Part shown: positions 3,517 to 63,340 of the stretch, one piece after another | Layout: each line of letters opens with the position of its first letter | How positions within the stretch are numbered: position 1 is the first letter of the stretch | Source: Candidatus Aenigmatarchaeota archaeon | Lineage (GTDB): Archaea; Aenigmatarchaeota; Aenigmatarchaeia; GW2011-AR5 | DNA: 64,000 bases | Assembly: GCA_016184005.1 (NCBI GenBank) | Contig: JACPDL010000003.1 | Coordinates: 17,839 to 81,838 of the forward strand | Reading direction: 5' to 3' | Made by a program: the position numbers and the translations under genes | The notes under the pieces: model-generated | Seen by the model: only the letters and a program-made list of their open reading frames with translations | What the model was told of the DNA's origin: nothing | Database searches by the model: none

Positions 3517-3616
3517 TTAGGAGAGAAGGTTGATACGTGCAAAGAGCAAAGCTCTTTGACGCGTCAGAGAACTTTCAGTTCTCTGCACGAGGAAGAGAAC
3601 CTAGGTTCTCGACTTA
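3517..3616 (+). repeat. Repeat family A, filled allele carrying a 54-nt twin-hairpin insert at 3536-3589
   Basis: Flanks join to the exact reverse complement of 28412-28456 and 52285-52330. Confidence 0.9.
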
Positions 3617-3739
3617 TGCTGACCACACCCCAAAGATAGGCAGTTGGTTTGACTGAAAAGCGCGAAAGCGTGATTTAGGCCTTGCCAACTGCCTACTCTT
3701 TCTTTTTTACAAAACTAGCGGAAGCTATGTCAAGAACTT

Positions 3740-3862
3740 TAAATGATATGCTCTTGATACTCCCACGACTAAAGTCGTGGGTTTCTGAGAGCATGTCATC
3801 CCAACATTGTTTATGTAATATCTGCTGTCTGAAGACAGCAGTTTTAAGCAATGTTGTGGATA
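3740..3862 (-). repeat. Repeat family B copy 1 (IS200/IS605-end-like hairpin cccacgactaaagtcgtggg) with a 30-nt hairpin insert at 3819-3848
   Basis: Aligns with 63197-63340 and 9562-9740 in reverse orientation. Confidence 0.85.
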
Positions 3863-3870
3863 AAGTTTTC

Positions 3871-5088
3871 TTAGATCAGCATTACTACAATCAGCAGCAA
3901 TGCGAAGCCGGCTGTGAATGCAAGGACTTTCTTTGCCAGTTTGCTTTGCCTGAAGAAGTAGATGGTTGCTATGTCGCCAAGCATGCCAGCGATGCTTGCA
4001 AGCACGATAGAAACGACGAATACCGGACTGCTTATCGCGCCCTGTGAAAACAGCAATGCCAACGATGCTGCAACCGCATAGCCGCTTCCCAGCCCGCCAA
4101 GAACGCTTATCGGTATCACTGCCTCAGGCGCATATGACACTGCCATGCGTGAAACAGCGAGCGTCAGGAAGAAAATCAGGCCGAGATAAAGGGCGGGTTT
4201 TATCGCGAATGGCGACTCGAAATCGCGGGTGAAGTTCTTCTTCGGGAATTTCCTGAGGAAGTAAAATGCGAAAAACAGATACAGCAGAGAAGCACCAATC
4301 AGGCCTGCAAAAAGCAGCATTGTCCCTGCCTGTTCTGTGAACAATGATGCCGCAACCATATTCCTTGCTGTCATTATGACAAAAGCAAGCAGCGAGGAGA
4401 ATGCAAACAGGTTAAGCAGCTTCTTGTTTTTCTTGTAATTCTGTATATTGGAAATGACAACAGCGGAAGAGCTGAAAATGCTGCCGAAGAAACTGGAAAG
4501 CATGACGCCTTTCTGCTCGCCGAAATGCCGCGTGGCAAGGAAGCCGGCAAATGAAACGACAGAAACTGCAAGAACAACTCCCCATGCCTCTCTGATGTTG
4601 ACGCCCAGCAGGACGTAGTCTGGCAGGAACGGGTAGATCACAAAAGCCAGGATTGCAAACTCCACGGCGTTAAGTATTTCTTTCTCCGAGAGATGGCGGA
4701 TATTTCCGACAAGCCTGTTTTTCGAGAAAAGCAGGAGAAATATTATTACTGAAGTCGCGATGGCTTCGCGATAAAACTCCAAAGCCACCATGGAGCCGAT
4801 AAAATACGTCAATATTATAGTGACAGAAGTGGTTAGTCCCGTGTGTGCCTGGGTTCTTGTCTTGTACCAGAACAGCGACACAGCCAAAGCGCTTGCAATA
4901 CCTATGCCCATGGCAAGAATAAGCGGCGAACCATACGTGAACGCAAAGAAAGTGGAGAGCATGCCGAACAGGCAGATGAAAGCTGCCGTGCGGACGCCAC
5001 TGCCCGGCCTGCCCTTGTGGTATTCCCTTTCTAGGCCGATGAAAGCGCCCAGGACAATACTGAGCAGGATTTTGTCCAGAAGCGGCAT
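3871..5088 (-). CDS. MgtC/SapB family membrane protein (DUF4010)
   Basis: IGLERE...GVRT...GLTT MgtC motifs plus multi-TM C-terminus. Confidence 0.88.
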   Translation of the reverse strand: MPLLDKILLSIVLGAFIGLEREYHKGRPGSGVRTAAFICLFGMLSTFFAFTYGSPLILAMGIGIASALAVSLFWYKTRTQAHTGLTTSVTIILTYFIGSMVALEFYREAIATSVIIFLLLFSKNRLVGNIRHLSEKEILNAVEFAILAFVIYPFLPDYVLLGVNIREAWGVVLAVSVVSFAGFLATRHFGEQKGVMLSSFFGSIFSSSAVVISNIQNYKKNKKLLNLFAFSSLLAFVIMTARNMVAASLFTEQAGTMLLFAGLIGASLLYLFFAFYFLRKFPKKNFTRDFESPFAIKPALYLGLIFFLTLAVSRMAVSYAPEAVIPISVLGGLGSGYAVAASLALLFSQGAISSPVFVVSIVLASIAGMLGDIATIYFFRQSKLAKKVLAFTAGFALLLIVVMLI

Positions 5089-5137
5089 GATTATTTTTAG
5101 CCGGAGCGGTTAATAAAGTTGAACAACGCTGCAAGAA

Positions 5138-5305
5138 TCAGCGCATGTAAGGATCGTCAGGAGCGTAGCCCTTTTTTTCATCGCGTCCGGGAAAAGAAGG
5201 CCCGGAAAGAACGTGTTGAGTATATTCTGAAAAATCTCTTTTTTCTTCTTTAGCAGTTGTTGTTAGCCGCGCTTTTTGAGAAAATAACCTTTTGAAGAAT
5301 TCCAT
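5138..5305 (-). CDS. Small hypothetical protein, 55 aa (MEFFKRLFSQK...DDPYMR)
   Basis: Manually translated; ATG starts immediately after the TrmB stop and fills the gap. Confidence 0.45.
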   Translation of the reverse strand: MEFFKRLFSQKARLTTTAKEEKRDFSEYTQHVLSGPSFPGRDEKKGYAPDDPYMR

Positions 5306-5306
5306 G

Positions 5307-6131: not shown

Positions 6132-6221
6132 TTTATGACACCATATAGTTTAAGTTGTCTCTTTAAGATACTAAATTACAAATAATAATGTTTATAAGCC
6201 TTTCCAGACCACTTTTGTGGG

Positions 6222-9477: not shown

Positions 9478-9561
9478 TTTTACCAAGTTAACTTATGTTT
9501 CCCTGTTTTAATAGATAGTATGCGCCATCAACAGACATCATTTAAATGAAAGGATAATAAT

Positions 9562-9740
9562 TATCCTCAGAGACATTGAAAACTGCTGTCTTTTCTGCAA
9601 AGGACTTTTAAGAAGTCCTTTGCAGAAATCCAGGAGAGCTTCGCTCTCCATGAATTAGACAGCAGATGAAACACAATGTCTCTGGGATCACATCTTCTCA
9701 CAAACCACCGACTTTAGTCGGTGGTATATTAAGAAGATAT
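9562..9740 (+). repeat. Repeat family B copy 3 with nested twin-hairpin insert at ~9593-9655
   Basis: acattg..ctgctgtct/agacagcag..caatgt stem and ccaccgactttagtcggtgg end hairpin, covarying with B1. Confidence 0.8.
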
Positions 9741-9812
9741 GATCATGGCACAAGCACAGTTATGACCACACATAAACAGTCAGAAATTTTGCGTACGCCA
9801 GTAAAGATTGGC

Positions 9813-10775
9813 CTACATTGCCGTATCTTCGGTTTCTTCAAGATATTTGATTATAAGACTTACCATAGGTTTTATATCGCCCTTATTTCCTTCTTCCAGC
9901 GCCTCATAGTACTTGCTTCTTTCCCTATATTTGATATTAACCATAGGCAGGCCGTTTTTTCTTAGTATGAAGTTAAGCAATAGCCTGCCGACGCGTCCGT
10001 TGCCGTCGCGGAATGGGTGTACAGACTCAAAGATGTGATGAAAGTAGGCAGCCACGACAACAGGATGGTATTTCTTCTTGTTTGACCTGTACCAGAGCAT
10101 CATATGCTTGAATTGCTTTTCTACTTCTTCGGGCTTCGGCGGCATGAAACCAGCGCCTCTTACATAGACCTGCACATCCCTGAACCTGCCGGCATATTTC
10201 CAGAGTATGTTGTGCATGAGCAATTTGTGCAGCTTTAGGACAAAATTTTTGTTTATATCACCTTTGTGAATCAGCATACAGTCAAAAGCGTCCTTATGGT
10301 TCTGAACCTCATTTATCTCGCGTACACTTCTTCCTTCCGGAACGATCTTGTCGAATAGTATCAGAGCTGTTTCCTGCAGCGTTACTGTAGACCCTTCTAT
10401 AGCGTTTGTGTCATAGGTAAATTCAGTAACAAAACTCTCATAGTAATTTCTATATACGTCTTTGCTGAGTTTAGACTTGTTTTTTTGATAAAATTTCTTG
10501 ATTCCGCTTATTTTCTTCTGATGATCTGCAGAAATCAGATTAAAAAGCGGATCTGATGATTTCCTCGATTTATCAGCTTTTTTCACCAATTCAGATTTTT
10601 TGTATCTAATAAGACGTTTCAGATCTCTACTATTTAGGTCTTTCCCAATGTAAATCCGAATCTTTTCCCACCCGCCACGCGATCTGACGTTCTTCGAACG
10701 TCCATTTCTCCTGCGTATATTCTCAACTATGTAAAAATAAGTGCCGCTTTTCTTTTTCTGCCTCTCCACATACAT
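9813..10775 (-). CDS. Fic family protein
   Basis: HPFRDGNGRVGR Fic motif; TNAIEG inhibitory motif. Confidence 0.95.
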   Translation of the reverse strand: MYVERQKKKSGTYFYIVENIRRRNGRSKNVRSRGGWEKIRIYIGKDLNSRDLKRLIRYKKSELVKKADKSRKSSDPLFNLISADHQKKISGIKKFYQKNKSKLSKDVYRNYYESFVTEFTYDTNAIEGSTVTLQETALILFDKIVPEGRSVREINEVQNHKDAFDCMLIHKGDINKNFVLKLHKLLMHNILWKYAGRFRDVQVYVRGAGFMPPKPEEVEKQFKHMMLWYRSNKKKYHPVVVAAYFHHIFESVHPFRDGNGRVGRLLLNFILRKNGLPMVNIKYRERSKYYEALEEGNKGDIKPMVSLIIKYLEETEDTAM

Positions 10776-10781
10776 GCTGTC

Positions 10782-10828
10782 TTTATGGGCACATATAAAT
10801 AAAAAGCTTATTCAGGTGTGCCCATAAA
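10782..10828 (-). promoter_or_regulatory. Fic promoter: TATA-like tract flanked by a perfect 12-bp inverted repeat
   Basis: tttatgggcaca (10782-10793) / tgtgcccataaa (10817-10828) around tttatttata on the minus strand. Confidence 0.55.
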
Positions 10829-10934
10829 TAAAACCGCTGCTATTGCTGGATTGCACAGATGGTGAACTTAACCATTCGCCCCAGTCAACAGTCAGTGGTT
10901 TTTCACATAAGCTAAACGAAAGGGGCGCTGAGAT

Positions 10935-12898: not shown

Positions 12899-14542
12899 AT
12901 GACAAATTCTGAAGCCGATTTGATTAGAAAATACGTGCTGATAAACGCCACGGAGCACGCCGGCCAAGCCCAAACAAAGAGCGTTCTAGGCAAGCTGCTC
13001 GCTGACCAGCCCGACCTGCGGGCACGCGCGCTAGAACTGCGCCCGATGATTGAAGATACAGTTGAAGACGTGAACAGGCTTGGGCTTGCCAGGCAAAAAT
13101 CAGAACTGGACAAGCTTGGCGGTTACCAGCCGATAAAGCACCAGGAAAGAAAGGGCCTGCCGGAAATGGAAAGAGGCGACAGGTTCGTTGTCAGGTTCGC
13201 TCCAAACCCGGACGGGGCATTGCATCTGGGCAACGCACGGCCTGCGGTATTATGCGACGAGTATGCAAAAAAATACAAGGGAAAGTTGATATTGCGATTT
13301 GACGATACAGACCCGAAAGTAAAGGTGCCGGAAAAGAAATTCTATAAATGGATAAAAGATGACCTGAAATGGCTGGGTATAAAATGGCATGGAGAATATG
13401 TAGCCAGCAAACGCCTGAATATTTATTACAAATATGCAGAGGCTATGATAAAATCTTCTTCTGCTTATGTCTGCACATGCGGCGATGAATGGAAAGTTTT
13501 GCGCGACAAGTCAAAGGCCTGCTCCTGCAGATCGTTGGATAGCAGAAACCAGCTTCGCAGATGGAAAAGAATGTTCAAGGGATTCAAAGAAGGCGAAGCG
13601 GTTCTTCGCATCAAGACAGACTTGGAAGCCAAGAATCCCGCTGTTCGCGACTGGCCTGCTTTCAGGATAGTCGATGCACCCAGACATCCGCTGGTCAAAA
13701 AGAAACTGTGGCCCCTATACAATTTTGCTTCGGCAATAGACGATCATCTCCTTGGAGTGACCCATATTTTCCGCGGGCAGGAACATTCAACAAACGAAGT
13801 AAAACAGAGATTCCTTTACCAGCATCTTAGATGGGAATATCCGCAAGTCATCACGCTCGGCAGATTCTCTTTATCAGGCATGGTACTCAGCAAAAGCCAG
13901 ATAAGGGAAGGCATAGAAAGGCACATTTACAACGACTGGGATGATCTGCGGCTTGGAACGCTCAGGTCATTGAACAGGCGGGGCTTCCAGCCGGAAGCAT
14001 TGCGCCAGATAATAATCGAGATCGGGCCGAAACCCAGCGATTTAACTGTATCAATGGAAAACCTTGCTGCGTACAACAGGAAGCTGATAGACAAGACAGC
14101 AAACCGTTATTTCTTCATATCCGACCCCAAAAGAATTGAAGTGAAAGGCCTGAAACTCAAGCAGATAAAAATCCCCTTGCATCCCGAAGCAAAAAGAGGC
14201 TTCCGTTCTATCTCTATCGGGAAGACATTCTACATAGACACGAAGGACTTTGAAAACTGCAAGGGACTTGAAGTGCGGTTGAAGGACCTTTGCAATGTAA
14301 AGCTCGGGGAGAAATCAGAGTTTACAGGCTTTGAAGTCAAGCCGACGCCAAAAATACAGTGGGTGTCTGAGAAACATATTCAGGTAAAAGTAATAACGCC
14401 CGAGATTGAAATTAAAGGCTACGGAGAAACGGGCATTGCAAAGGAAAAGCCGGGATCGATACTGCAGTTTGAAAGATTCGGTTTTGTAAAGATAGAGAAA
14501 TCAGGCGGCAATATCGTGACAGCCGTCTGGTCTCATGAATGA
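12899..14542 (+). CDS. gltX: Glutamate--tRNA ligase
   Basis: RFAPNPDGALHLGN, RFDDTDP, LSKS, QFERFGF. Confidence 0.96.
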   Translation: MTNSEADLIRKYVLINATEHAGQAQTKSVLGKLLADQPDLRARALELRPMIEDTVEDVNRLGLARQKSELDKLGGYQPIKHQERKGLPEMERGDRFVVRFAPNPDGALHLGNARPAVLCDEYAKKYKGKLILRFDDTDPKVKVPEKKFYKWIKDDLKWLGIKWHGEYVASKRLNIYYKYAEAMIKSSSAYVCTCGDEWKVLRDKSKACSCRSLDSRNQLRRWKRMFKGFKEGEAVLRIKTDLEAKNPAVRDWPAFRIVDAPRHPLVKKKLWPLYNFASAIDDHLLGVTHIFRGQEHSTNEVKQRFLYQHLRWEYPQVITLGRFSLSGMVLSKSQIREGIERHIYNDWDDLRLGTLRSLNRRGFQPEALRQIIIEIGPKPSDLTVSMENLAAYNRKLIDKTANRYFFISDPKRIEVKGLKLKQIKIPLHPEAKRGFRSISIGKTFYIDTKDFENCKGLEVRLKDLCNVKLGEKSEFTGFEVKPTPKIQWVSEKHIQVKVITPEIEIKGYGETGIAKEKPGSILQFERFGFVKIEKSGGNIVTAVWSHE

Positions 14543-17500
14543 CGCCTGTATCTGTATTTTCTCAAAAAGCGCAGCTTTTTGGAATTCTCAAAATGCAGAG
14601 CATTTTGGAATCTCGAAAAAACTTTGTTTTTTCGAAGATCTCGGAGAAGCTTCGCTTCTCCCAAGATTACACCCTTCTGTTTTTTACGGATTTTTCTTTT
14701 AGGCTTCTTCTTTAGGCGGAAAAAGACCAGCATGCCCGCAAGAATCACGACCCCGGCAACAGCCAGGCTGGTAGGGGAAGCCGCAACAAGGCCTGTGGGA
14801 CCTATAACCCCTGTCTGGTTTTTTTCAGCGGCAGTTTCGTTTGCAAGCGCCTGGCTTGCAGGCATGACGTTTGTTTTGTTTGTTGCAGGTGCGCCGTTTC
14901 CTGTTATATTTGCTGCAGATTTATGTGCCACGTTTGGCGTTGCATTGCTTAATGATGCATTAGTGAGATTTGGTTTTGCCTGCGGTGCAGGTCTCGCGCC
15001 CCCTCCACCGCCCGAATAGCCGCCTCCGGAAGCGGAAGGACTTGGGCTTGCTGGCGGGGTAAAGGTGAAGGCTATTGTGTTCTTGATTTCATTTCCTGAT
15101 GTATCATTTGCATACAGCACCAGCGTATTCGAGCCCTGGGACGCTGTTATTGTGGTGTTCGTGCAGCCTATAAGTGAAACATTGGAATCGTTGTTAAGCC
15201 TGTACACGCATCCATCAGCGGCAATATTGTCACTGGCAGTGTAATTAAGCGGAATTGACGATGAAGCGTATGTTGTGGATGCGACAGGAGACGTTATAGT
15301 CACATTAGGCGCCTGCGTGTCATTGCCTGCCGCCGCACCCGAGAATGAGGGCAGATAAAGCACTGAGGCATTTGTTGTCATGTTGTAGCAGGGCTTGTTT
15401 GTGAAATCTGCATTGCATGCGCTTTCAATCCTTGTTATGTCAGGCGCGTCTCGTGTGCCATTGAGATAGAAGTAAATGGCATAAACCTGCGGGAATGTTA
15501 TTTTTGCCGCGTAGCTGTTTTCAGGCAGGGCGCCGTTCATGTCTACCCACGCAAGCGAACCGAAGACGCCGCCGCTTTGACTGAAGGCGGACGACACACT
15601 TCCGGCGCCCTCTATGTCGTCTGCTATGCCCATCATATTAGACAGGTTGAGGGCTGATAAATTGAAATCGACTATTTCTATAAGCGTGCCTGTGAGGTTG
15701 AACCTCAGCGTGTAATTCTTTGCGGCATCCAGCGCTGAAACGCTGATCTCATTATCCGTTTCGAGGAATGTCATCGTTATGTTCCTTGCGGAAAGGCTTG
15801 CACTCAGGGAACCGAAATAGGACGTTACATTCTCCCTTGCCTTTATGAAAACAAGCACTTCTTGCGTGGCATTGAAATTGCCGGCCAGGTCTGCCAAGTA
15901 GGCCTTCAGCGTATAATTTCCGTCGCTCAGGTCCAGCGTTTTTGCCCATTCTTTCCCGCCGCCCGACATGCTTTCGTTGACAAAGTTGAGCTCAAGGACG
16001 GCCGAGGAAAGAGGCTCGCTTGCCGTCATGTTTATTGTTATCCGGCTTGTTTCGTGCGTTGTTCCGTTCAAAGGCGTGGGAGAAACAAAGCCAGCATCCG
16101 GCGGTATGCGGTCTATTGATGCTGACATCATGAAAGAATTTGCAGTGTTGCCGGCGAGGTCTGTTGTTTCGAAGTAAAAGCTGATTGTAGTGTTGTGCTG
16201 CAATGAAGTGAGGTTTATAAGAATGCTGCAGTTCCTTGTTCCTGAAAGGCATGCCATGCTGGTATTTGTGAAGTTCTGCGCCGCCCCCCAATAGAGGTTT
16301 GCGCGTCGCAGGTGCATTTCGCTGTACGACAATGAAAAATTCTCATTCAGGCCCCGCATGAAGGTGTTGTTTGCCGGCGAGAGTGCCAGAATCACCGGAG
16401 GCCTTGTATCAAGCGTTATATTCAGCGTCTCAGTTGCCGTGTTGCCTGCAGAATCGTTTGCGTGGATCCTGTAGTTATAAGTCCCGTCATCAGCTGTCTT
16501 GTTGGCGGTGCATGACACCAATGTCCCGTTGTTCAGTTTCACCATCGTCTGGTTTGTCCCGTTCCATTCCAGGATGCAGGCAGAAATGTTTGTTAAGTCC
16601 GAAACACTCACATTGATAAAAATGTAGTTTCTGCTGACAAAAGAATTGTTTACATCTGCTGAAACAATGCTTATAGTTGGTTTTACTGTGTCAATTGTGA
16701 AAATGACTGTTTGCGATGTTGCGTTATTCCTGCTCTGATCGCTGCATGTTACATTAAGCGGATAAGTTCCGTCAGATAGGTTGAGAATATATGAATTTTG
16801 AACCCCAGATGTTGCATTGCCTAAATTTATTTTAGTGCCATTAAGGTTGCGCGAGCATTCCTGCTCTAGATTAAGATCGTCAATAGCTGTAAAGTTGACG
16901 ATTATGTTGTTTTTGTTCAGGAAACTATTGTTAACAGGCCCTGTCAAGTCGACCGATGGAGAAATATTGTCGACGAACTTGTCAGATAGCGTGAAACTTG
17001 AGGTGATGTTATAAGCTGTATTCGCTGAAAGGCTTGATGGAACAAGCCTTGCGGTCCACATTCCAGCCGAGGCGTTAATTGAAACATTGATATGATTAGT
17101 TCGACTCGTGGAAAAAACAGAATTTCCTGAAGTGTTGTAGAGGCCCAACTGAATTGATGCATTGTCAATCCAGCCAATACTCATGCTCAGGAGCGAGTTG
17201 TTTGTTGTATTAATTCTATAATAAGAAATGCCTCCTAAAGTGTTGTTTGTGAAAAACACCTCGCCGAAAGGCAAGAAATTCGAAGCTATTGAATACTTTG
17301 CACTTCCACTTACGGTTGTTGGCAGGACCAATATGTTCCAGTAACCACTTACAGGGTTGGTGACTTTTATCATTTCTTCTGTTTGCAGCACAGAAGCCGA
17401 TGATTTTACAATAGCGCCTGATGGATCCAGAAGTTGTAAGTCGAGATTCTGGTGCACTGAGTAATTCTCAGACCAGTAAACTGTTGCGCGTATTTCTGAA

Positions 17501-18774
17501 GAATTTACCGGCACGAAAATGCTGTGGATTTTGCCAATGTTTGATATGGTTCCTGATATCGTGTTGTTTATCTCGCCGAAAATCCGCGAAACATCTATCC
17601 TTCCAGCACCTTTGTCGCTTGTCTTCGAAAAATTCCCGTTGAGATCAAGAGCAGAGTTCATCATTATCGCCTTGACTTCTGCAGGGGTAAGATTGTCCCT
17701 AGCTTGCAGCATTAAAGCGGCTATACCTGCAATATGGGGCGTAGACATGCTGGTGCCGCTTTTCTGCACGAAATCGTCCTGGGTTTCCCACCTGCTGTTT
17801 GCAGAGGCTATCGGGTTGCCGGGGGCGAGAACATCGGGCTTTATCCTGCTGTCGTCTGTGGGTCCCCTGCTCGAGAAACCGCTGACGGCATCCCGTGTTG
17901 TGCTGCCTTTTCCCGTGTCCGTGGAACCGACAGTTATGACCTTGTGCGCCAGTCCGGGCGAGCAGATGGAAAATGAGTTGCCTGTTGAATCAATTGTCCT
18001 GCAATTATCTTCACCGCTAGGTCCGCTATTACCAGCAGCTACAGTCACAACCTTGCCTTTGTCTGCTATATTGTCAAGATAAGATGAAAGCACGTCGCTC
18101 CCGTCAGCAGGAATCTCACGCCCGCCTAAACTCAGTGTAAGTATGTGCGCCCCGTTGTCAACGCACCAGTCTACGCCGCGTAATATATCCGTATCTAAGC
18201 AGCGTCCAGCGTCGTCGCACACCTTTGCGTTCAGTATGCCTGCGCCGAAAGCCACGCCGCGGAAAACAGCGTCATTTCCGGCAGCTATTCCAGCCACATG
18301 CGTGCCGTGGCCGTAGATGTCCTGCGGGTTGCCGCCGCCCGTAAAGTCGGCTTCGTTCACGACCCTGTCTGCAAGCGACGGGTGCGTTTTATCCACGCCA
18401 GTATCAAGAACGCATATCCTTATGCCTGAACCGTTGTAGCCTGTACCCCACGCCGTTGATGCATTTATTATTGGAACAGATACATCGAGCAGTATCTTCT
18501 TTTCCCCGTTGGCCCATACCTTCTCGACAACAGGATCATTTTCAAGGGCATTAAGCATGCTTTTCCTTATTCTGGCTGTGTAAAAATTTGTTTGCCTGAA
18601 CTGTTTGACGTTCTCAGCGCCCTCAATATTGTAGTTATCGTCCGCCTTGACGATTACTGTAACCTTGTCATCCTGTGACTCGTATAACGCGGGGTCTATT
18701 TTTTGAGTACTGGCCGAATAGGACAAAGCAGCAAGTAATAGAAACAGGCATAAAAATGCGGCTAATATTCTCAT
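14533..18774 (-). CDS. Secreted, membrane-anchored S8 subtilisin-like protease with Ig-like repeats
   Basis: Signal peptide; LDTG, HGTHVAG, GTSMSTPH triad; many N-x-S/T sites; C-terminal TM. Confidence 0.93.
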   Translation of the reverse strand: MRILAAFLCLFLLLAALSYSASTQKIDPALYESQDDKVTVIVKADDNYNIEGAENVKQFRQTNFYTARIRKSMLNALENDPVVEKVWANGEKKILLDVSVPIINASTAWGTGYNGSGIRICVLDTGVDKTHPSLADRVVNEADFTGGGNPQDIYGHGTHVAGIAAGNDAVFRGVAFGAGILNAKVCDDAGRCLDTDILRGVDWCVDNGAHILTLSLGGREIPADGSDVLSSYLDNIADKGKVVTVAAGNSGPSGEDNCRTIDSTGNSFSICSPGLAHKVITVGSTDTGKGSTTRDAVSGFSSRGPTDDSRIKPDVLAPGNPIASANSRWETQDDFVQKSGTSMSTPHIAGIAALMLQARDNLTPAEVKAIMMNSALDLNGNFSKTSDKGAGRIDVSRIFGEINNTISGTISNIGKIHSIFVPVNSSEIRATVYWSENYSVHQNLDLQLLDPSGAIVKSSASVLQTEEMIKVTNPVSGYWNILVLPTTVSGSAKYSIASNFLPFGEVFFTNNTLGGISYYRINTTNNSLLSMSIGWIDNASIQLGLYNTSGNSVFSTSRTNHINVSINASAGMWTARLVPSSLSANTAYNITSSFTLSDKFVDNISPSVDLTGPVNNSFLNKNNIIVNFTAIDDLNLEQECSRNLNGTKINLGNATSGVQNSYILNLSDGTYPLNVTCSDQSRNNATSQTVIFTIDTVKPTISIVSADVNNSFVSRNYIFINVSVSDLTNISACILEWNGTNQTMVKLNNGTLVSCTANKTADDGTYNYRIHANDSAGNTATETLNITLDTRPPVILALSPANNTFMRGLNENFSLSYSEMHLRRANLYWGAAQNFTNTSMACLSGTRNCSILINLTSLQHNTTISFYFETTDLAGNTANSFMMSASIDRIPPDAGFVSPTPLNGTTHETSRITINMTASEPLSSAVLELNFVNESMSGGGKEWAKTLDLSDGNYTLKAYLADLAGNFNATQEVLVFIKARENVTSYFGSLSASLSARNITMTFLETDNEISVSALDAAKNYTLRFNLTGTLIEIVDFNLSALNLSNMMGIADDIEGAGSVSSAFSQSGGVFGSLAWVDMNGALPENSYAAKITFPQVYAIYFYLNGTRDAPDITRIESACNADFTNKPCYNMTTNASVLYLPSFSGAAAGNDTQAPNVTITSPVASTTYASSSIPLNYTASDNIAADGCVYRLNNDSNVSLIGCTNTTITASQGSNTLVLYANDTSGNEIKNTIAFTFTPPASPSPSASGGGYSGGGGGARPAPQAKPNLTNASLSNATPNVAHKSAANITGNGAPATNKTNVMPASQALANETAAEKNQTGVIGPTGLVAASPTSLAVAGVVILAGMLVFFRLKKKPKRKIRKKQKGVILGEAKLLRDLRKNKVFSRFQNALHFENSKKLRFLRKYRYRRHS
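14559..14666 (+). mobile_element. Family D element, 108 nt (one 54-nt twin hairpin nested in another), in frame in the protease tail
   Basis: Four triloop hairpins; outer pair identical to 24664-24717. Confidence 0.85.
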
Positions 18775-24266: not shown

Positions 24267-24449
24267 TTCTTTTCACCTCATAGCTTTGCAGCCAGATGAA
24301 CATAAGTTGGGCTAGCTGATGAACTGTAAAACAGAATTCAGCTAGAATTCACCTTTAATATATTGTGTAGGTTAATTTATATACATTTCGCTTTTCAGAA
24401 TCTTGTTGTAGTGGAAATTTCATTAATAATTTTAGAAGAAATAATTTTT

Positions 24450-24815
24450 ATGCCAACAGCAGGTCAGCTTGGACTTAGAAAAGGTGATGTTGTCCGTCTC
24501 GCTACAGTCTACAAAGAATTTGCCGCTTCAGATTTAGCAGGTAATCCGTATTCTGTCAGAAGACTGATGGGCCTTGACATGACCGGAGGGCCAAGGGTTG
24601 AAGTCATAGAAACTCATGTTCGTCATCCAAGCGCTAAAGGATTCTATACTAGAGTTATGTATATTCTCAAAAAGCGCAGCTTTTTGGAATCTCGGAGAAG
24701 CTTCGCTTCTCCCAAGATAGATGACGACCCATATTCAGGAACATTATCAGAAGAGTTGGGATATATCTGGGAAAGGTTTGAAGGTTTCGTGGGACCTGTA
24801 GAAAGATTAAAGTGA
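24450..24815 (+). CDS. Hypothetical protein containing an in-frame 54-nt palindromic insert
   Basis: ORF stays open through 24664-24717. Confidence 0.65.
   Translation: MPTAGQLGLRKGDVVRLATVYKEFAASDLAGNPYSVRRLMGLDMTGGPRVEVIETHVRHPSAKGFYTRVMYILKKRSFLESRRSFASPKIDDDPYSGTLSEELGYIWERFEGFVGPVERLK
24664..24717 (+). mobile_element. Family D 54-nt twin-hairpin unit
   Basis: ttctcaaaaagc-GCA-gctttttggaa + tctcggagaagc-TTC-gcttctcccaaga. Confidence 0.88.
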
Positions 24816-24816
24816 C

Positions 24817-25074
24817 TTATTTCTCCATTTCGCTGTAGAAGCAGCGTCCGCAATATTTCCTGTTCTTGTATCTGGCAAGGAATATGCCTGCGCCGCAGCG
24901 CGGACATTCTTCGTTTTTGCGCGTGACTTTTTCGCCTTCAATCTTGTAAAGTTTCCACACCTGGACTTTCTTGTGCTTCTTCTTCGACTTGGGCCTCTCT
25001 TTCTGCGATTTCTTCTCCTTCTTCTTCTCTTCCTTTACAGGTGCTGCCGCTTCTTTTTCTGGTGGTCTGGCCAT
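24817..25074 (-). CDS. rps27ae: 30S ribosomal protein S27ae
   Basis: CPRCGAG..LA....R.YCGRC; position after S24e. Confidence 0.93.
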   Translation of the reverse strand: MARPPEKEAAAPVKEEKKKEKKSQKERPKSKKKHKKVQVWKLYKIEGEKVTRKNEECPRCGAGIFLARYKNRKYCGRCFYSEMEK

Positions 25075-25080
25075 TAATTA

Positions 25081-25386
25081 TCACTCTTGCTTTTCCTCTT
25101 TCTTTTCTTGCTTCGTTTCCTGCCCCTTTTTCTCTTCTTTTGCCGCTTCTTTCTTGACAATCTTTTCTTCCCACACAAAGACCTTAGCGCGGGATTTAGG
25201 CAAACCCGTTTCAGTGAAGATGTGCTTTATTTCAACCTTGTCCGCATCCGTCTTGAGCTCTTTTGATATCCACTGCTGCAGCGCATCCTTTCTGGGTGAA
25301 GCTTCGCTTTCGTGTTCTATTTCTGCAGCAATCTCTTTCCTCTTCAAGAAAGGATTATGCTTGTCTGACAGAATATTGACTTTCAT
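25081..25386 (-). CDS. rps24e: 30S ribosomal protein S24e
   Basis: NPFLKRKEI...H...SP.K...I.T.TG. Confidence 0.9.
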   Translation of the reverse strand: MKVNILSDKHNPFLKRKEIAAEIEHESEASPRKDALQQWISKELKTDADKVEIKHIFTETGLPKSRAKVFVWEEKIVKKEAAKEEKKGQETKQEKKEEKQE

Positions 25387-25447
25387 TTTTAAACCTCAAT
25401 CCAGATTTCACATTTTCCTCTTAACAATCCTCTTGCAGATGCGATCA

Positions 25448-25555
25448 TCTTGGGAGAAGCTTCGCTTCTCCGAGATCTTCGGAGAAACTGAGTTTCTCCG
25501 AGATTCCGAAATCCTTTGGATTTCGAGAATTCCAAAAAGCTGCGCTTTTTGAGAA
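25448..25555 (-). mobile_element. Family D element, 108 nt, intergenic between spt4 and rps24e
   Basis: Reverse-orientation homologue of 14559-14666 with compensatory stem changes. Confidence 0.88.
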
Positions 25556-28392: not shown

Positions 28393-28411
28393 CTATTTTG
28401 CACACACCCAA

Positions 28412-28456
28412 TAAGTCGAGAACCTAGGTTCTCTTCCTTATCAACCTTCTCTCCTA
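28412..28456 (-). repeat. Repeat family A, empty allele; begins at the PIN gene stop codon
   Basis: Identical to 52285-52329; contains the gagaacctaggttctc palindrome. Confidence 0.9.
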
Positions 28457-33910: not shown

Positions 33911-33979
33911 AACAAATCCCTTTTCTTTAGGAAAGAAAAGGTCTTTGTAAACCCCAAAAGAAATTCAAGACCTTCTCTA
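33908..33979 (-). repeat. Repeat family E copy 1: hairpin leader ending at the aminotransferase ATG
   Basis: Homologous to 48077-48149. Confidence 0.85.
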
Positions 33980-41125: not shown

Positions 41126-41180
41126 TCTGCAAAGAAGCAAAGCTTCTTTGAGACTCTGAAAAGCTTTGCTTTTCAGGAGA
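41126..41180 (+). mobile_element. Solo ~54-nt twin-hairpin unit
   Basis: caaagaagc-AAA-gcttctttg agact ctgaaaagc-TTT-gcttttcag. Confidence 0.8.
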
Positions 41181-41309: not shown

Positions 41310-41478
41310 TTTCTTATTTTGCTATCGTAAAAACTACTGGTTTTGCTCAGATGAATCTTCGATTCATCTGGCAACTTAAGTCGAGCGAAGCTCAACTTCA
41401 AGTCAACCAGTAGACGAACACGATAGCGAAAGAAATCCTCAAAGAAACCACCACATTCATGTGATGGTTGCATAAGGG
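41310..41478 (+). repeat. B-like composite element: long stem with nested twin hairpin, then an end hairpin
   Basis: gctatcgt/acgatagc and ctactggtt/aaccagtag enclose cagatgaatc-TTC-gattcatctg and gagc-GAA-gctc; then aaccaccacattcatgtgatggtt. Confidence 0.7.
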
Positions 41479-48076: not shown

Positions 48077-48149
48077 AGAGAAGGTTTTTGATATTTCTTT
48101 TGGGGAATACAAAGACCTTTTCTTTAGGAAAGAAAAGGGATTTGTTATG
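48077..48149 (+). repeat. Repeat family E copy 2: hairpin leader ending at the pdhB ATG
   Basis: acaaa-GA-ccttttcttt-AGG-aaagaaaagg-GA-tttgt t ATG. Confidence 0.85.
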
Positions 48150-49381: not shown

Positions 49382-49441
49382 TATTTAGTTAAATAATGTT
49401 AACTTTAAATATCCGTATTGCCAATTATATTGTTGATTAAA

Positions 49442-49807
49442 ATGGGCTTGGTTCACATATTCGGAGAAAAACCTGTACCGAAGGTTCTGGATTTCTTTAG
49501 GGTTCATTCTTACTGGGATTATTCACTTAAAGATCTGTCGAAAGCTACAAAGATAAGCCACAGAACTTTGCAGCAGATAATCCCGCAACTTGTTAAGCAT
49601 GGTTTTCTGAAATACACAAGAACAGAAGGAAAAGCGAAAATGTTTATTTTTAATAAAGAATCAAAAATAGCCAAAGAACTGCACGAATTTGCTCGAACAA
49701 TAGATTTTGAGTTTTTATCTACAGACCATAAAAAAAAGCAGCACTCGCCTGAGATTGCCTTTGATCTTGGGAGAAGCGAAGCTTCTCAGAGATTCCAAAA
49801 AGCGTAG
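49442..49807 (+). CDS. HTH protein whose stop codon is supplied by a palindromic insert
   Basis: KVLDFF...DYS...LSKAT.IS..TL; last 13 codons lie in the D element. Confidence 0.75.
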   Translation: MGLVHIFGEKPVPKVLDFFRVHSYWDYSLKDLSKATKISHRTLQQIIPQLVKHGFLKYTRTEGKAKMFIFNKESKIAKELHEFARTIDFEFLSTDHKKKQHSPEIAFDLGRSEASQRFQKA

Positions 49808-49818
49808 CTTTTTGAGAA
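49765..49818 (-). mobile_element. Family D 54-nt twin-hairpin unit
   Basis: Reverse homologue of 24664-24717. Confidence 0.88.
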
Positions 49819-50982: not shown

Positions 50983-52284
50983 ATGCCATACGAATTCAGG
51001 TTTCCCGATGTTGGCGAGGGCATAACAGAAGGTGAGATAGTAAAATGGCGCGTGAAGGAAGGAGATACTGTTAAGGAACATGATGTCATCGCCGAGATAG
51101 AAACAGACAAGGCAATAGTCCAGATACCTTCGCCAAAGAGCGGCAAAATAGCAAAACTCCATCATCGTGAAGGCGATACCATTCACGTAGGAGAAACGCT
51201 CGCGACTATCGCTGAAGAGAATGAGCAGCTTATTTCTTCCACGGAAAAATCCATTGAAATGCCGAAACAGCAGAAAGGTGTCGCTGTTGTCGGCCAGCTT
51301 GAAGAAGCAGCAGATATAGAGCCTGCTGTGAAACAGCCCACGGCTAAGCCAGCCGTAAATGCAGCAAAGCAGGTTACCGGCAAGATGGCTGAAGTGCTGC
51401 CGGCTGTAAGGAGGCTTGCAAGAGAGCTTAATGCCGACATTTCAAGCGTAAAAGGAACAGGGAAAGACGGACGAATAACAGAGGAAGACGTCAGGCAGTC
51501 TTCTCAAGCAGCAGAAAAAAAAAGCGAAGAAGTACAAGAACAGTCTCTTGTCAGGATAGAAAGAAAATACGATATGTACGGTTATGTTGAGCGTGTGCCG
51601 TTGAAAGGCATCAGAAAAGCAACAGCGAAGAACATGGTGAAGTCCATGTTCACAGCGCCGCATGTGACACACATGGATGAAGCTGACGTCACAGAACTTT
51701 CAGCAATTCGCGAAAAAGAAAAGGCAAAAGCTGAAAAGAGCGGCATAAAACTGACTTTCCTGCCGTTCGTCGTGAAGGCAGCTGTCGCTGCGCTGAAGGC
51801 GCATCCATACATGAACGCAAGCATGGATGATGAGCATGGCGAAATAATACTGAAAAGCTACTACAATATCGGCATAGCTATTGACACTACAGACGGCCTG
51901 ATAGTTCCTGTCATCAAGGAAGCAAGCGAAAAAACAATCCTGGAGATAGCAAAAGAAATACAAAAATTTTCTGAAGCCGCTAAGGACAGGAAAATAGATC
52001 TTGCTGACATGAAAGGAGGCACGTTTACCATAACAAACGTCGGCTCTGTGGGCGGTCTGCATGCAACGCCAATAATAAACTGGCCCGAGGCGGCAATAAT
52101 TGCGACTGGACGCATATACGACAAGGCTGTCGTAGCCGGTAAAAAAATTGTTGCAAGAAAGATGATGCCTCTTTCCGTTTCATTTGATCACCGCATAGTC
52201 GATGGCGTAGAAGCAGCCAGGTTCACAAACACGCTGAAAGAGCACTTGGAAGATCCTGAATTGCTGTTGATTGAGGGACGATAA
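50983..52284 (+). CDS. pdhC: Dihydrolipoamide acyltransferase E2
   Basis: ETDKA lipoyl site, GTG..GRI, FDHRIVDG. Confidence 0.95.
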   Translation: MPYEFRFPDVGEGITEGEIVKWRVKEGDTVKEHDVIAEIETDKAIVQIPSPKSGKIAKLHHREGDTIHVGETLATIAEENEQLISSTEKSIEMPKQQKGVAVVGQLEEAADIEPAVKQPTAKPAVNAAKQVTGKMAEVLPAVRRLARELNADISSVKGTGKDGRITEEDVRQSSQAAEKKSEEVQEQSLVRIERKYDMYGYVERVPLKGIRKATAKNMVKSMFTAPHVTHMDEADVTELSAIREKEKAKAEKSGIKLTFLPFVVKAAVAALKAHPYMNASMDDEHGEIILKSYYNIGIAIDTTDGLIVPVIKEASEKTILEIAKEIQKFSEAAKDRKIDLADMKGGTFTITNVGSVGGLHATPIINWPEAAIIATGRIYDKAVVAGKKIVARKMMPLSVSFDHRIVDGVEAARFTNTLKEHLEDPELLLIEGR

Positions 52285-52330
52285 TAAGTCGAGAACCTAG
52301 GTTCTCTTCCTTATCAACCTTCTCTCCTAA
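52285..52330 (-). repeat. Repeat family A, empty allele directly after the pdhC stop
   Basis: Identical to 28412-28456. Confidence 0.9.
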
Positions 52331-53738: not shown

Positions 53739-53894
53739 TAGGAAAGAGGTGTAGAGAGGAGATCTGCAAAGAACATAGTTCTTCTTGCAGAAACCTTTGG
53801 TTTCTGAAGACTCAGGAAAGCTTTGCTTTCCTCGAGTTGAGACCTCAGAGAACTTTTAGTTCTCTGCAGAAAACCCTAGGTTTTCTCCTTCTTA
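53739..53894 (+). mobile_element. Three-level nest: A-like hairpin > 54-nt unit > 54-nt unit
   Basis: Removing 53783-53836 and then the rest of 53763-53870 restores a perfect hairpin at each step. Confidence 0.82.
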
Positions 53895-59932: not shown

Positions 59933-60111
59933 TAGCTCAACCTAAACTCTTGATTTCCTTTCTAGCTCTGATGGATGATTGTATTAACTGATCATATTCA
60001 TATACTGTATTAATAGATAAGATTATTAGTGAACATTATCGGCTCTGTTCTTAAATTTTTCTATTGCAGAGGATAGAGTCTTTGGCAGGACAGAACACGC
60101 AGAATTCACAA

Positions 60112-60750: not shown

Positions 60751-60805
60751 TCTATTAATTACAACGGGTGATATTTATTAGTTGTTTAACCGATTTTCTG
60801 CAAAT

Positions 60806-63151
60806 CTAACTGTCTGGTCTGAGAAAAGGATTGCTCACATTTTCTTCTTTCTTATGCCTGCCTTTCAGTTTGCCGATCATAATAATCAGGAAAACCACGC
60901 CGGCAATAATAATTACAAGGCCAAGCATGTCAGAGCTCGCCTGAGCTGGCGTTTGTGGCGGAGCCTGTACAGGTATCTGCTTTTCCTCTGGCTGCGGCTC
61001 TTCAGGAGGTTTTGTAGATACAGACCCTCCGATAGCAAAGATTGAGAAGCCTGTTGTTTCAGCTACAAAGTGATATACATAGCTTGTCTCGTCAAGCCTT
61101 GCAGTGTAAGCTGGAGTCCAGGAAGTGCCGGCTAAGCGGTACAATTTTATTGAATCTACATCGATATTATTATCTTCTATCCATTTCTTGTCTACCCTGA
61201 ATTCTATTTTCACAAGCTGCATGTCTTCACTCACAAAATTTATAGGTTTTATGTTGAAGGCCTTGTAAACGACGGGTCCTTCAGGAAGGCTTGTTATGGT
61301 TGTTATCTCTGACGTGTCTAACGATAAAGTTGTCCCACTTGATACTGTCTTCCTGTTTGTAAAGTCGACGAAGACCCTGAATATATCGAAATTGGCATAT
61401 GATACTGTAATGTTTTCTAATGTTTTTGACGAAGAACCCCCACCACCAGAGCTTCCACCACCACCGCCACCTGAACCACCTCCGCCTCCTGAAACTATTG
61501 GTGTCTGACAGACACCGCAATCTGTGGAGCATAGCGAGCAGCTTTCCAGGCTGCTGCAGAAGTTATCGCCGCAATAGCTGCCATCCTGAACAGAATACTC
61601 GGTGAAATGCGGCACTGTAAACGTCAGGTTCCCGCCTATGAAACTTATTATTCTGCAATCCGGACAAGTAAAGTTGTTCCTGTATACCAAAGGATTTGCA
61701 ATTCCTGCAAGGACGAGGGTGACGGTTGCCGAAGTATTAAATGTTGCAAAAAGTTCTGAACGAACTATGACTCTATGAAGAGAAAATTCGATAGCCCTGC
61801 TTAGATTTACAGGAACCAGAATGCCGGAAATATTTTCAAGCAGGCTTATGGTTTTTGAGCCGAAATCCAGTTCACCTACGCCCCTGATGCCTATCTTGAA
61901 ATATGCGAAATCTGACAAATCAACATCTGAAAGATTCGTACTGAGATCAGGCGAGAAATTACCGGGAGGTATGGGACATCCATGTCTGCCCACGGCGTAT
62001 TGCGGCGGGGTGCTGGGACATCTGTCTAAACTGTCAGGAACACCATCACTGTCTGCGTCTGAAAAAACAACATTCACGCTTGCATTCAGTGCAGTTGTAC
62101 TGATGGCAGTGCCGTTGCTTGATGCGAGCAGTACTTGTGATAATCTTAAGTCAGACATGCCCTTATTGGTTGCTCTCAAATATACTGAAGCTATAGTGCC
62201 ACTGCCACTAGCGCCGCTACCTATTCTTACAACGGCAATGTTCTTTATAATACCAGGAGATGTTGAATCTGTTGTTTCAAGGAAGAGTGTTTGTACACCT
62301 CCCTGTTTCAGGAATGTGCCCTCCTGAGCCCTCTCGTATCGCAGCACTGCAGGATCGTAGCTTACGCTTGCCTGGATGCCTGCAAGGCCGCTTATGTTAT
62401 TTGCGACAATATCAACCCTTATTTCATTGCCCAGTAGCACAGACGGTGAAGACGGTTGAAGTGCAATAGAATTTGTGACAGTTACTGGAGCAGCCCCAAC
62501 AGAAATTGTTACTGATTTCGTTGTGCTGCTACCGGCACCTGTGCATGTGAGCGTGTACGTTCTGCTAGATGTCAAAGCCCCTGTGCTCTCGCTGCCTGAA
62601 AGCGGCTTTGCGCCTAACCAAGCACCGGATGCTGTGCAGGAGTTTACATTGGCTGCACTCCATGAAAGCGTTGCTGCACTGTTGTAAGCTACTGATGATG
62701 GACTTGCTGCAAAATTTAACGTTGGCATCAAAGGATTTACCGAACCCGTGAAGCTTACATTACCGCTGTTGATGATATAACCCGCGGTACTCGTATGGAC
62801 AAAGCGCAGCGAATTGGTTCCTTGTCGCCACCAGTTTGCATTGGTGGTGAAGGTCATTGATTTATTGAGGTTATCGTTTGCAGTTGTACCTTGTGCACCG
62901 AATAGTTGGACAGGTCCGTTACCGTTTATGTAAAGCAGGCCTTCATTAGGGAAGTCTGGATCAAAGACAGACATGGTAAGAATGGCATTCTGGAAGATCT
63001 GTGGATCAATAACGACGGTCTCCGTGACTGTTTTTTCTTCTGGAAGGGTTGTTCCTAGTAGCGAAACCGGAGCGAAAGCGAAAGCCAGCGGTATTGTAAA
63101 CAGCATCAAGAGTGCGAATAGCATGATTTCTGCTAGAAGGTCTCTAGTCAT
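60806..63151 (-). CDS. PGF-pre-PGF surface protein with cohesin-like domain and TSP3 repeat
   Basis: YDPAVL...EG.FL, DADSDGVPD..DRCP.TP, F.VDKKWI...TTGFSIFAI, TM. Confidence 0.85.
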   Translation of the reverse strand: MTRDLLAEIMLFALLMLFTIPLAFAFAPVSLLGTTLPEEKTVTETVVIDPQIFQNAILTMSVFDPDFPNEGLLYINGNGPVQLFGAQGTTANDNLNKSMTFTTNANWWRQGTNSLRFVHTSTAGYIINSGNVSFTGSVNPLMPTLNFAASPSSVAYNSAATLSWSAANVNSCTASGAWLGAKPLSGSESTGALTSSRTYTLTCTGAGSSTTKSVTISVGAAPVTVTNSIALQPSSPSVLLGNEIRVDIVANNISGLAGIQASVSYDPAVLRYERAQEGTFLKQGGVQTLFLETTDSTSPGIIKNIAVVRIGSGASGSGTIASVYLRATNKGMSDLRLSQVLLASSNGTAISTTALNASVNVVFSDADSDGVPDSLDRCPSTPPQYAVGRHGCPIPPGNFSPDLSTNLSDVDLSDFAYFKIGIRGVGELDFGSKTISLLENISGILVPVNLSRAIEFSLHRVIVRSELFATFNTSATVTLVLAGIANPLVYRNNFTCPDCRIISFIGGNLTFTVPHFTEYSVQDGSYCGDNFCSSLESCSLCSTDCGVCQTPIVSGGGGGSGGGGGGSSGGGGSSSKTLENITVSYANFDIFRVFVDFTNRKTVSSGTTLSLDTSEITTITSLPEGPVVYKAFNIKPINFVSEDMQLVKIEFRVDKKWIEDNNIDVDSIKLYRLAGTSWTPAYTARLDETSYVYHFVAETTGFSIFAIGGSVSTKPPEEPQPEEKQIPVQAPPQTPAQASSDMLGLVIIIAGVVFLIIMIGKLKGRHKKEENVSNPFLRPDS

Positions 63152-63196
63152 TTTATATATTCATCCTGAGCCTTAAACTTAAAGTTTTTCTCCTAC

Positions 63197-63340
63197 TATC
63201 CGCAACATTGTTACATAAACAATGTTGGGATGACACCTTGCAGAACAAAGTTCTGCGAGGTCTCGAAGAGCTTTGCTCTTCGAGGATGCTCTCAGAATCC
63301 CACGATTGAAGTCGCGGGAGTATTAAGAGCATATCATTTA
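63197..63340 (+). repeat. Repeat family B copy 2 with a 51-nt twin-hairpin insert at 63236-63286
   Basis: Reverse complement of 3740-3862 apart from different inserts and a few substitutions. Confidence 0.88.

Follow-up and report, generated by a model that had tools for sequence, protein, structure and literature searches.

What are the paired hairpins that recur along a contig of a Candidatus Aenigmatarchaeota archaeon, and how did they come to be there? To address this question we examined a stretch of 64,000 nucleotides (GenBank assembly GCA_016184005.1, contig JACPDL010000003.1), referred to below, at its full length, as the window. It corresponds to C4:17839-81838 of the source assembly, G000, which comprises 919,184 bp in 5 contigs and is 93.9% complete. 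An initial annotation had listed 13 twin-hairpin units at ten places in the window; tandem triloop hairpins are present at all ten, and the coordinates were right to within a few bases. We conclude that they form a family of tiny, non-autonomous mobile DNA elements restricted to one lineage, in which a 54-nt cassette of two palindromes is what moves. This cassette is gained and lost whole between close relatives, without target duplication and with its ends fixed.

Are such hairpins more frequent than chance would allow? Three Markov-2 simulations provided the baseline for the genome-wide counts. Perfect hairpins (stem of at least 8 bp, 3-nt loop) number 271 in G000, compared with 19–23 in the simulations; hairpins of the same loop length in which 9 or more of 10 positions pair number 210, compared with 21–29. 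The spacing of successive hairpin centres peaks at 25–28 nt (26 successive pairs, genome-wide). When folded as single-stranded DNA (ssDNA), 15 of 15 stretches, namely the 10 places in the window and 5 insertions in a comparison genome, form tandem triloop hairpins, with z-scores of -3.5 to -8.8; no more than one of 200 shuffles folded equally well. The module is an imperfect palindrome of about 27 nt, made up of a 3-bp foot, a bulge of 1–2 nt or small internal loop, a stem of 8–10 bp and the triloop. Each of the two modules of one twin folds upon itself, their stem sequences differ, and a loose consensus, TCTC-RRARAAnC-nnn-GnTTYTYY-(G/C)AAGA, is common to all subfamilies. Loops of the GC-GAA-GC, GC-GCA-GC and GC-GTA-GC types, read on either strand, occur in 58 of the 271 perfect hairpins; they are often found, as had been claimed, but not in almost all cases, AAA or TTT loops closed by GC accounting for 38 of the same 271.

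How are the modules put together? The comparison genome, G001, is congeneric with G000 and about 90% identical to it over 580 kb of long alignments; nearly all of the G001 sequence was taken into the comparison. In both genomes, modules are organized as 54-nt twins and 108-nt quads. An array scan (at least 7 of 8 pairs per hairpin, 24–30-nt spacing) returned 82 arrays from G000 (60 twins, 7 triples, 13 quads and single arrays of five and of six modules) and 70 from G001 (46 twins, 9 triples, 15 quads). The commonest twin is A-D (TTCTCAAAAAGC...CTCCCAAGA, 54 nt) and the commonest quad A-B-C-D (108 nt), while B-C also stands alone. Searched as regular expressions, A-D, A-B-C-D and B-C number 11, 6 and 1 in G000 and 6, 6 and 6 in G001; counts of single modules by this means are unreliable because a palindromic module can score on both strands. 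Given the order of the quad and the separate existence of A-D and B-C, A-B-C-D reads as a B-C twin set in the middle of an A-D twin. Two familiar kinds of repeat were ruled out: a CRISPR array, since the modules abut directly and differ in sequence, and a classical miniature inverted-repeat transposable element (MITE) with terminal inverted repeats and target-site duplication, since the ends share only TCT...AGA, without duplication. At gathering score, the window has no Rfam match.

Is it the structure or the sequence that is conserved? We built a covariance model of the twin, R1, from a seed of 60 twins chosen by the hairpin scan, 19 of 79 candidates having been discarded for low similarity to the commonest twin; 11 of the 60 come from the window, so that R1 matches there are partly built in. 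In the alignment of the 60, 90.3% of cells pair, against 73.6% when shuffled, double changes occur at 17 of 20 pairs, and sliding the partner by one column lowers pairing to about 54%; this count is partly circular, the twins having been selected by their hairpins. A test on the left arm alone avoids selecting on the pairing itself: of 147 matches to TCTC followed by a purine-rich 8-mer, 46 have a right arm complementary at 7 or more of 8 positions at the right distance, with 9 distinct arms among them. When the right arms were re-dealt among these 46, the mean was 28.2 and the maximum 35 in 1000 trials. The compensatory changes that the initial annotation had quoted are there in the sequence (14613/25479 and 14589/25507), and the covariation of the stems that it pointed to is supported.

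In one orientation, defined by the flanks, the stem GGAGAAGC carries TTC 16 times and GAA 6 times in G000, and 14 and 7 times in G001; the D module has GAA at 49770-49788 and TTC at 25453-25471. Other complementary loop pairs seen are GCA/TGC, GTA/TAC, AAA/TTT and TCC/GGA. The stems thus stay complementary while their sequence drifts, and the loops exist in both complementary forms. Template switching at quasi-palindromes, established for bacteria, yields both concerted changes of the two arms and loop flips. Among the stem mismatches, A·C occurs 8 + 10 times and G·T 9 + 7 times (18 versus 16, both genomes), a symmetry that does not suggest selection acting on a single RNA strand.

Do the elements move? 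To answer this, we compared G000 with G001 for clean indels, defined as those of at least 20 nt with flanks at least 80% identical. There are 140, with size peaks at 54 nt (12 indels) and 108 nt (9), and smaller ones at 27–28 nt (8) and 117–119 nt (8). Triloop twins or quads make up 11 of the 12 at 54 nt and all 9 at 108 nt, and the insertions are shared out between G000 and G001 as 6 and 6 (54 nt) and 4 and 5 (108 nt). Six more twin or quad events measure 52–57 or 106–107 nt. Across the filled and empty pairs, the ambiguity or microhomology at the junction ranges from 0 to 5 nt, and the size remains 54 or 108 nt throughout; hence the ends are fixed and the target site is not duplicated. The claim of a non-autonomous mobile element without target duplication therefore holds. 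Ten 54-nt A-D copies in G000 have a mean identity of 94.5%, with 6 of 45 pairs identical, which indicates recent activity. Gains and losses of single modules (27/28 nt) have the overlap of 1–11 nt typical of slippage. Contigs from runs X7 and X8, belonging to two other studies, run across the empty forms at 14560/14670 and 25386/25584, each side having 255 letters or more, though these may be of the same lineage as G001. Joints 9591>9655 and 14585>14639, from runs X3 and X5, were considered as excision products and rejected, the shorter side being 20–26 nt and possibly derived from other copies.

Where do the cassettes land? The target was tallied for 33 A...D elements of both genomes (one of 34 was dropped, its flanks being nearly identical to those of another). 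To the left of the element there is C at -5 in 22 of 33, A at -3 in 29 and A at -1 in 24, with A or T at -4 in 30 and at -2 in 25; P for the three fixed positions (-5, -3, -1) is 7e-8 to 5e-13. On the right the main feature is T at +1 (23/33). The main subfamily therefore sits directly 3' of an A-rich pentamer, C-W-A-W-A, the preference being soft rather than absolute. Since the pentamer is found in empty sites too (for example ACCAATA| and CAACAT|), it is target sequence and not part of the element. The 3' ends of the modules (GGAA, GAAGA, CAAGA) resemble this pentamer, and new cassettes may for that reason land at module junctions and so give rise to nested and tandem arrays.

Nesting itself is observed. 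At C4:104484 a different twin has entered a quad at its GAGAT|TCC junction, and this insertion is polymorphic; two unrelated twin types occupy one and the same GGTTGATA|AGGAAG position of a 47-nt repeat, which exists in filled and empty forms. That units nest in one another and in other repeats was thus correctly perceived. The initial annotation went further and took hairpins to be the preferred targets. Of the 21 indels measuring 54 or 108 nt, at least five do lie within other palindromes or arrays, but the remainder are in ordinary sequence, and the A-rich pentamer is the better supported target; hairpins are frequent but not required. The 47-nt repeat family (TAGGAGAGAAGGTTGATAAGGAAGAGAACCTAGGTTCTCGACTTATT) is a recurrent landing site for twins and is itself polymorphic (28410-28456, 52283-52329, 3517-3620, C4:166621), one copy being an indel of 53 nt flanked by a direct repeat of 10 nt, TTTTAATTAG. 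Another family of hairpins, ACAAAGACC-TTTTCTTT-nnn-AAAGAAAA-GGGATTTGT, is present at 33912-33948, 48109-48145 and many sites genome-wide; it is intergenic, with a pyrimidine-rich 5' arm, and is possibly terminator-like. Its loop is sometimes occupied by a twin, as in the G001 insertion at C4:424611.

Can such a cassette be accommodated within a gene? Both 54 and 108 are multiples of three. On average 4.8 of the 6 frames of the 54-nt A-D copies are free of stops, as against 2.1 for mononucleotide shuffles and 3.2 for random genomic windows; for the 108-nt copies the corresponding values are 3.75, 0.67 and 1.96. The E2 acyltransferase gene of G001 contains a quad in frame after residue 124, within the linker that separates the lipoyl domain (4-76) from the E3-binding domain (140-171); it adds 36 residues, and the open reading frame (ORF) stays open. 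A transporter of the MFS family (390 residues) in the same genome carries a twin, likewise in frame, in the loop after about residue 196, with 18 residues added and the ORF again open. Judged from the reading frames, then, copies inside genes appear to leave the gene intact, lengthening its product by 18 or 36 residues at linkers or loops that permit this. Of the 82 arrays of G000, 13 lie deep within ORFs (at least 20 codons inside an ORF of at least 150 aa), as do 8 of the 70 of G001, in agreement with what the annotation had noted, although some of these host ORFs are possibly not genes. The frame LGRSE...QKAALFE is used by 6 of these 21 arrays. Outside long ORFs lie 67 of the 82 arrays and 62 of the 70. 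One further difference within a gene concerns the ftsZ ORF (2161..3399), where G000 has about 73–75 extra bases relative to G001 at 2581-2655; the net difference, as the BLAST pieces show it, is not divisible by three, and either a frameshift or misassembly of the G001 copy or an offset in the alignment may account for it.

How do the individual places in the window compare? A scan for perfect stems found 3540-3585, 14563-14661 (four hairpins), 24668-24712 (two), 25453-25551 (four), 41130-41176 (two), 41348-41370, 49796-49814, 53788-53886 (four) and 63262-63284; with its filters off, R1 matches 10 of 10 places, the weakest being 41345-41401 (12.6 bits, E 0.078). In G001, at most 10 columns are aligned at five of the ten places (3536, 14559, 25448, 41126 and 53763), so that at least this number of the orthologous sites is empty.

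The first of the five, 3536..3589 (+), is a 54-nt twin (CGTGCA...TGCACG; R1 48.9 bits, z -5.9) within a copy of the 47-nt repeat, with 4 of 54 columns aligned at the empty G001 site. The interval 3517-3620 is this repeat plus exactly 54 nt, and the empty alleles that had been reported from the same window are indeed there, at 28410..28456 and 52283..52329, 100% identical to one another. The quad A-B-C-D at 14559..14666 (+; 108 nt), seen by the perfect-stem scan, R1, ssDNA folding and the G001 alignment, lies in the basic C-terminal tail of a subtilase-like ORF, 14533..18774(-), and is exactly absent from G001 (GTATT|108 nt|TTACACC compared with GTACTTTGCACC). That at 25448..25555 (-), also 108 nt but in reversed orientation, is found by the perfect-stem scan, R1 and ssDNA folding; it lies at the 3' end of ORF 24971..25552(+), and 10 of 108 columns align at its empty G001 site. 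The twin at 41126..41180 (-; R1 65.6 bits and ssDNA fold) represents a second subfamily (TCTGCAAAGAAGC... / CTCTGAAAAGC...) and is a 53-nt indel, the G001 site being empty. A third subfamily is represented by the 108-nt quad at 53763..53870 (+), recognized by R1, ssDNA folding and an exact 108-nt indel; it splits the stem of a hairpin, GGAGAAAACC-cta-GGTTTTCTCC, and 0 of 108 columns align at the empty site.

Among the others, the commonest subfamily contributes the 54-nt A-D twins at 24664..24717 (+; R1 76.8 bits, ssDNA fold), inside ORF 24363..24815(+), which has no Pfam match, and, reversed, at 49765..49818 (-; R1 68 bits, ssDNA fold), at the end of ORF 49418..49807(+). A weak member, 41343..41400, pairs a 10-bp triloop hairpin with a short second hairpin (z -5.6); the G001 regions for this place and for 24664 are aligned but diverged. 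A 51-nt twin with 11-bp and 10-bp triloop hairpins occupies 63236..63286 (-; R1 46 bits, z -7.6), one of three places in the window that no long G001 alignment spans. At 9593..9655 there is a 63-nt variant, with a stem of 14–15 bp and a triloop hairpin (R1 match at 9592-9654, 21 bits; z -8.8), set in the loop of one hairpin of a composite MITE of about 190 nt, copies of which with an uninterrupted loop are present elsewhere. This variant falls within a 1.4-kb segment missing from G001. The segment (9524-10934) is also absent from contigs of two other runs; it contains an ORF with a Fic/DOC domain, 9813..10775(-), has the composite MITE at its left edge, and looks mobile or recently acquired. 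A direct repeat of 119 nt, 92% identical, occurs at 14-132 and 1796-1914, 1.8 kb apart. The genes of the window form an archaeal set that includes TrmB, Kae1, DUF1512, FtsZ, an H+-pyrophosphatase, a class-I GluRS and a 2-oxoacid dehydrogenase complex.

How widely is the family distributed? Further copies, for which a covariance-model scan had been proposed, lie well beyond the window. At E <=0.01, R1 has matches in 25 of 31 relatives, and six genomes have none. Counted on both strands among the best 150 scored candidates per genome, the matches listed number 134 in G000, 121 in G001, 131 in G006, 122 in G016, 108 in G020, 91 in G028 and 87 in G005. Of 151 genomes sampled evenly across the phylum, 18 match at E <=1e-4, all of them from the same family or order or from a few families within the same class. 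The quad of G020 belongs to a larger repeated unit. A type IV pilin cluster of G005 has seven twins between or beside its genes. More generally, clusters of this sort (Pilin_N, DUF7266, DUF7287, DUF7289) have a twin in most intergenic gaps (G005:C2:74000-86000; G000 C4:1-10000), and the twins may play a role in these operons or may simply be tolerated by them.

What moves the cassette? The window encodes no mobilising enzyme, as had been stated. Elsewhere in G000 the only transposase-type gene found is a Y1 transposase of the IS200/IS605 type (PF01797), present as fragments that share one sequence at three contig ends; three more contig starts have in common a 140-nt end with a CCACCG...CGGTGG hairpin. 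A multicopy Y1 insertion sequence (IS) would thus explain 6 of the 10 contig ends of G000 (C2 start, C3 end and C4 end; C1, C3 and C5 starts). Read outward, its ends consist of the CCACCG...CGGTGG hairpin, about 10–14 nt and TTTAAA. G001 has three full-length Y1 genes. Within the 93.9% complete G000 there is no match to PF00589 tyrosine integrase, PF01609 DDE_Tnp_1, PF00078 reverse transcriptase or PF07282 TnpB; Y2_Tnp (PF04986) has no match in 5 genomes, but as it has none in the control genomes either, this negative carries no weight.

The best explanation, which we put forward tentatively, is that Y1 acts in trans to move the cassettes; it is the single most likely motor, with an unrecognised one close behind. 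In this mechanism the hairpins would be extruded from ssDNA and recognized by their structure, an IS200/IS605-type HUH Y1 transposase would cut and join them in trans, and template switching from arm to arm on the extruded hairpin would produce the perfect stems and flipped loops. Over the 31 relatives, the median number of R1 matches among those listed is 99.5 in the 8 genomes with Y1 and 4 in the 23 without (Mann–Whitney p 0.002, the relatives not being independent), in keeping with the proposed link to Y1 or REP-associated tyrosine transposases (RAYT; REP, repetitive extragenic palindrome). That Y1 genes should exist in the genome proved correct as well, but the IS to which they belong is an ordinary multicopy one, its hairpins are different, and no twins flank the genes.

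Several observations weigh against this assignment. No Y1 was found by hidden Markov model or protein query in five relatives which nevertheless have 87 (G005), 131 (G006), 46 (G014), 69 (G007) and 57 (G002) R1 matches among those listed; of these, G005 is assembled in 2 contigs and is 90% complete. The hairpins of the Y1 IS differ from those of the twins, being the GC-rich CCACCG...CGGTGG with loops of 3 to 6 nt, and the IS ends about 10–14 nt past the foot of the hairpin, whereas the twin ends 0–5 nt from it. By contrast, the MITE family of 117–119 nt does match the IS hairpins and is thereby the obvious client of the Y1 enzyme. The densest clusters of twins (G000 C4:1-10000, C5:1-8000 and C3:26000-33000; G005 C2:74000-86000) contain no transposase by Pfam, their neighbours being pilins, PIN-domain proteins, methyltransferases and regulators. 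The orientation of the twins shows no bias with respect to the GC-skew arms, taken from the cumulative GC-skew minimum of contig C4, where origins are unmapped, and no preference with respect to the upstream gene (10 same, 8 opposite).

The 117–119-nt MITE is likely, from the resemblance of its hairpins to the ends of the Y1 IS, to be a true IS200/IS605 derivative. Its hairpins are CTGCTGTCT-TTA-AGACAGCAG and ACCACCGAC-TTTA-GTCGGTGGT, and it inserts 3' of TTAT in 5 of 5 polymorphic copies read. The family is polymorphic with respect to G001 and is found in the window at 9555-9746 and 3741-3863, and at C4:109102, 156704 and 309359 and C2:29096.

If not Y1, what else might be responsible? It is quite possible, if somewhat less probable, that the same element relies on a different motor, namely an unrecognised lineage-specific protein, a host repair or replication nuclease that works on the extruded hairpins, or an enzyme of a virus or plasmid outside the assemblies. 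The five element-rich genomes that lack a Y1 match and the unlikeness of the twin and IS hairpins both speak for it. So does the restriction of the family to one order and a few neighbours (18/151), which fits a lineage-specific factor. Sampled copies in G005 and G006 are diverse, with stems intact; near-identical pairs are few and have their flanks in common, a sign of segmental duplication. The diversity fits inactivity in the absence of Y1; but perfectly paired stems in such diverged copies imply that something besides recent Y1 activity maintains them. Such a motor has to be set against the rise of copy number with the presence of Y1, the lack of integrase, DDE transposase, reverse transcriptase and TnpB matches in G000, and the absence of any candidate gene beside the densest clusters. 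That no dedicated enzyme is involved at all, and that template switching, slippage and short-homology recombination between palindromes suffice, the size reflecting what the replisome tolerates, seems to us quite unlikely. The junction microhomology of 0–5 nt often matches the element's own ends, the single-module events carry the mark of slippage, and loop flips with concerted arm changes are the expected products of template switching. Yet slippage alone gives loss rather than copying to distant sites, the indels are sharply peaked at 54 and 108 nt, and near-identical units with the same ends stand at many unrelated loci beside a one-sided pentamer. We regard as unlikely, too, the more far-reaching proposal of a hairpin-only transposon without a transposase of its own kind, in which host replication or repair enzymes working on extruded hairpins would copy twins to A-rich pentamers, template switching would keep the stems and flip the loops, and the twins, free of stops and divisible by three in length, would be a standing source of 18- or 36-residue insertions in genome-reduced DPANN archaea.

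Might the hairpins instead be functional, as intercistronic RNA stabilisers, terminators or protein-binding sites under selection, their mobility being incidental? The position of most arrays outside long ORFs (67/82 and 62/70), the seven twins of the G005 pilin cluster and the intact stems of diverged copies would all be expected on such a view. To this we assign a slim probability: orthologous sites are freely filled or empty between congeners, copies occur within coding sequence, there is no preference relative to the upstream gene, the A·C (8, 10) and G·T (9, 7) mismatches show no strand bias, and Rfam has no match in the window. An origin in assembly artefacts or chance palindromes is refuted by the occurrence of the same elements in independent assemblies of at least 25 genomes and in contigs from runs of several studies, and by their roughly tenfold excess over simulation. 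The mismatch between element abundance and the presence of Y1 offers a concrete test of whether REP-like hairpins always need Y1.

What would such an element mean for its host? If the interpretation is correct, the twins are among the smallest mobile elements described in archaea. Their hosts are a DPANN lineage with densely coding genomes of less than 1 Mb, in which a length that is a multiple of three, freedom from stops and tolerance in the linkers and loops of essential proteins may be what allows selfish DNA to persist. Because they have neither terminal inverted repeats nor target duplications, the twins may be missed by tools that seek these features. A 2024 census with MITE-Tracker places DPANN genomes among the archaea densest in MITEs (PMC11602168). 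The accessible literature on Aenigmarchaeota repeats or hairpins and on DPANN MITEs, taken without the supplements of that census (PMC11602168), contains no description of the family that we could find.

How, finally, does the family compare with known systems? It is REP/REPIN-like, yet it lacks features of each known family in turn, having no inverted REP doublet, RAYT, IS-like hairpins, terminal inverted repeats or target duplication. With the MITEs derived from IS200/IS605 it shares the absence of target duplication, one-sided insertion 3' of a short sequence, hairpins at both ends and the presence of a Y1 transposase in the genome. Unlike them, it has hairpins that do not match those of the resident IS, hardly any spacer separates hairpin foot from element end, and no replication-strand orientation bias was seen for the twins relative to the GC-skew arms of C4; the 117–119-nt family of G000 is a far better fit to this class. 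The small dispersed repeats (SDR) described in cyanobacteria by Elhai et al. (2008), which the family appears to resemble, reportedly have units of 21–27 nt that form a hairpin with compensatory changes and insert into one another and into other repeats. To our knowledge no transposase is known for the SDR of heterocyst-forming cyanobacteria. Compared by description, SDR differ in their bacterial host and in that here it is the 54-nt pair that moves; residence in frame within genes and the loop flip are not known to be features of SDR.

In behaviour the family is also like REP, REPIN and the bacterial interspersed mosaic elements (BIME). REP sequences are described in PMC3116915 as highly repeated, short imperfect palindromes whose doublet spreads and which form clusters by insertion next to or into existing copies; the same paper names, as the class of transposase presumed to act in trans, one related to that of IS200. 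The twins resemble these, so far as that description goes, in their short imperfect palindromes, high copy number, doublet as the unit of spread and clustering. In a REPIN, by the same account, inverted REPs pair into one long hairpin, whereas here two hairpins fold separately in tandem. In contrast to REP-RAYT systems, we found no single-copy RAYT flanked by repeats in G000 and no twin beside the Y1 matches; the copies are not confined to extragenic space as REP sequences are (13/82 and 8/70 in ORFs), and the host is a DPANN archaeon rather than a bacterium. For residence in genes, the parallel is with the Rickettsia palindromic elements, which, as set out in PMC10969869, are about 150 bp long, lie in frame in unrelated housekeeping genes and encode a conserved peptide. 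On that account both are palindromic selfish DNA that can lie in frame within a gene and add a peptide segment to its product, though the Rickettsia elements are bacterial and of about 150 bp, while the units described here are 54 or 108 nt long and mostly intergenic. By analogy, then, the twins would act in the manner of REP/REPIN or IS200/IS605-type hairpin elements, and would reside in genes in the manner of the Rickettsia palindromic elements.

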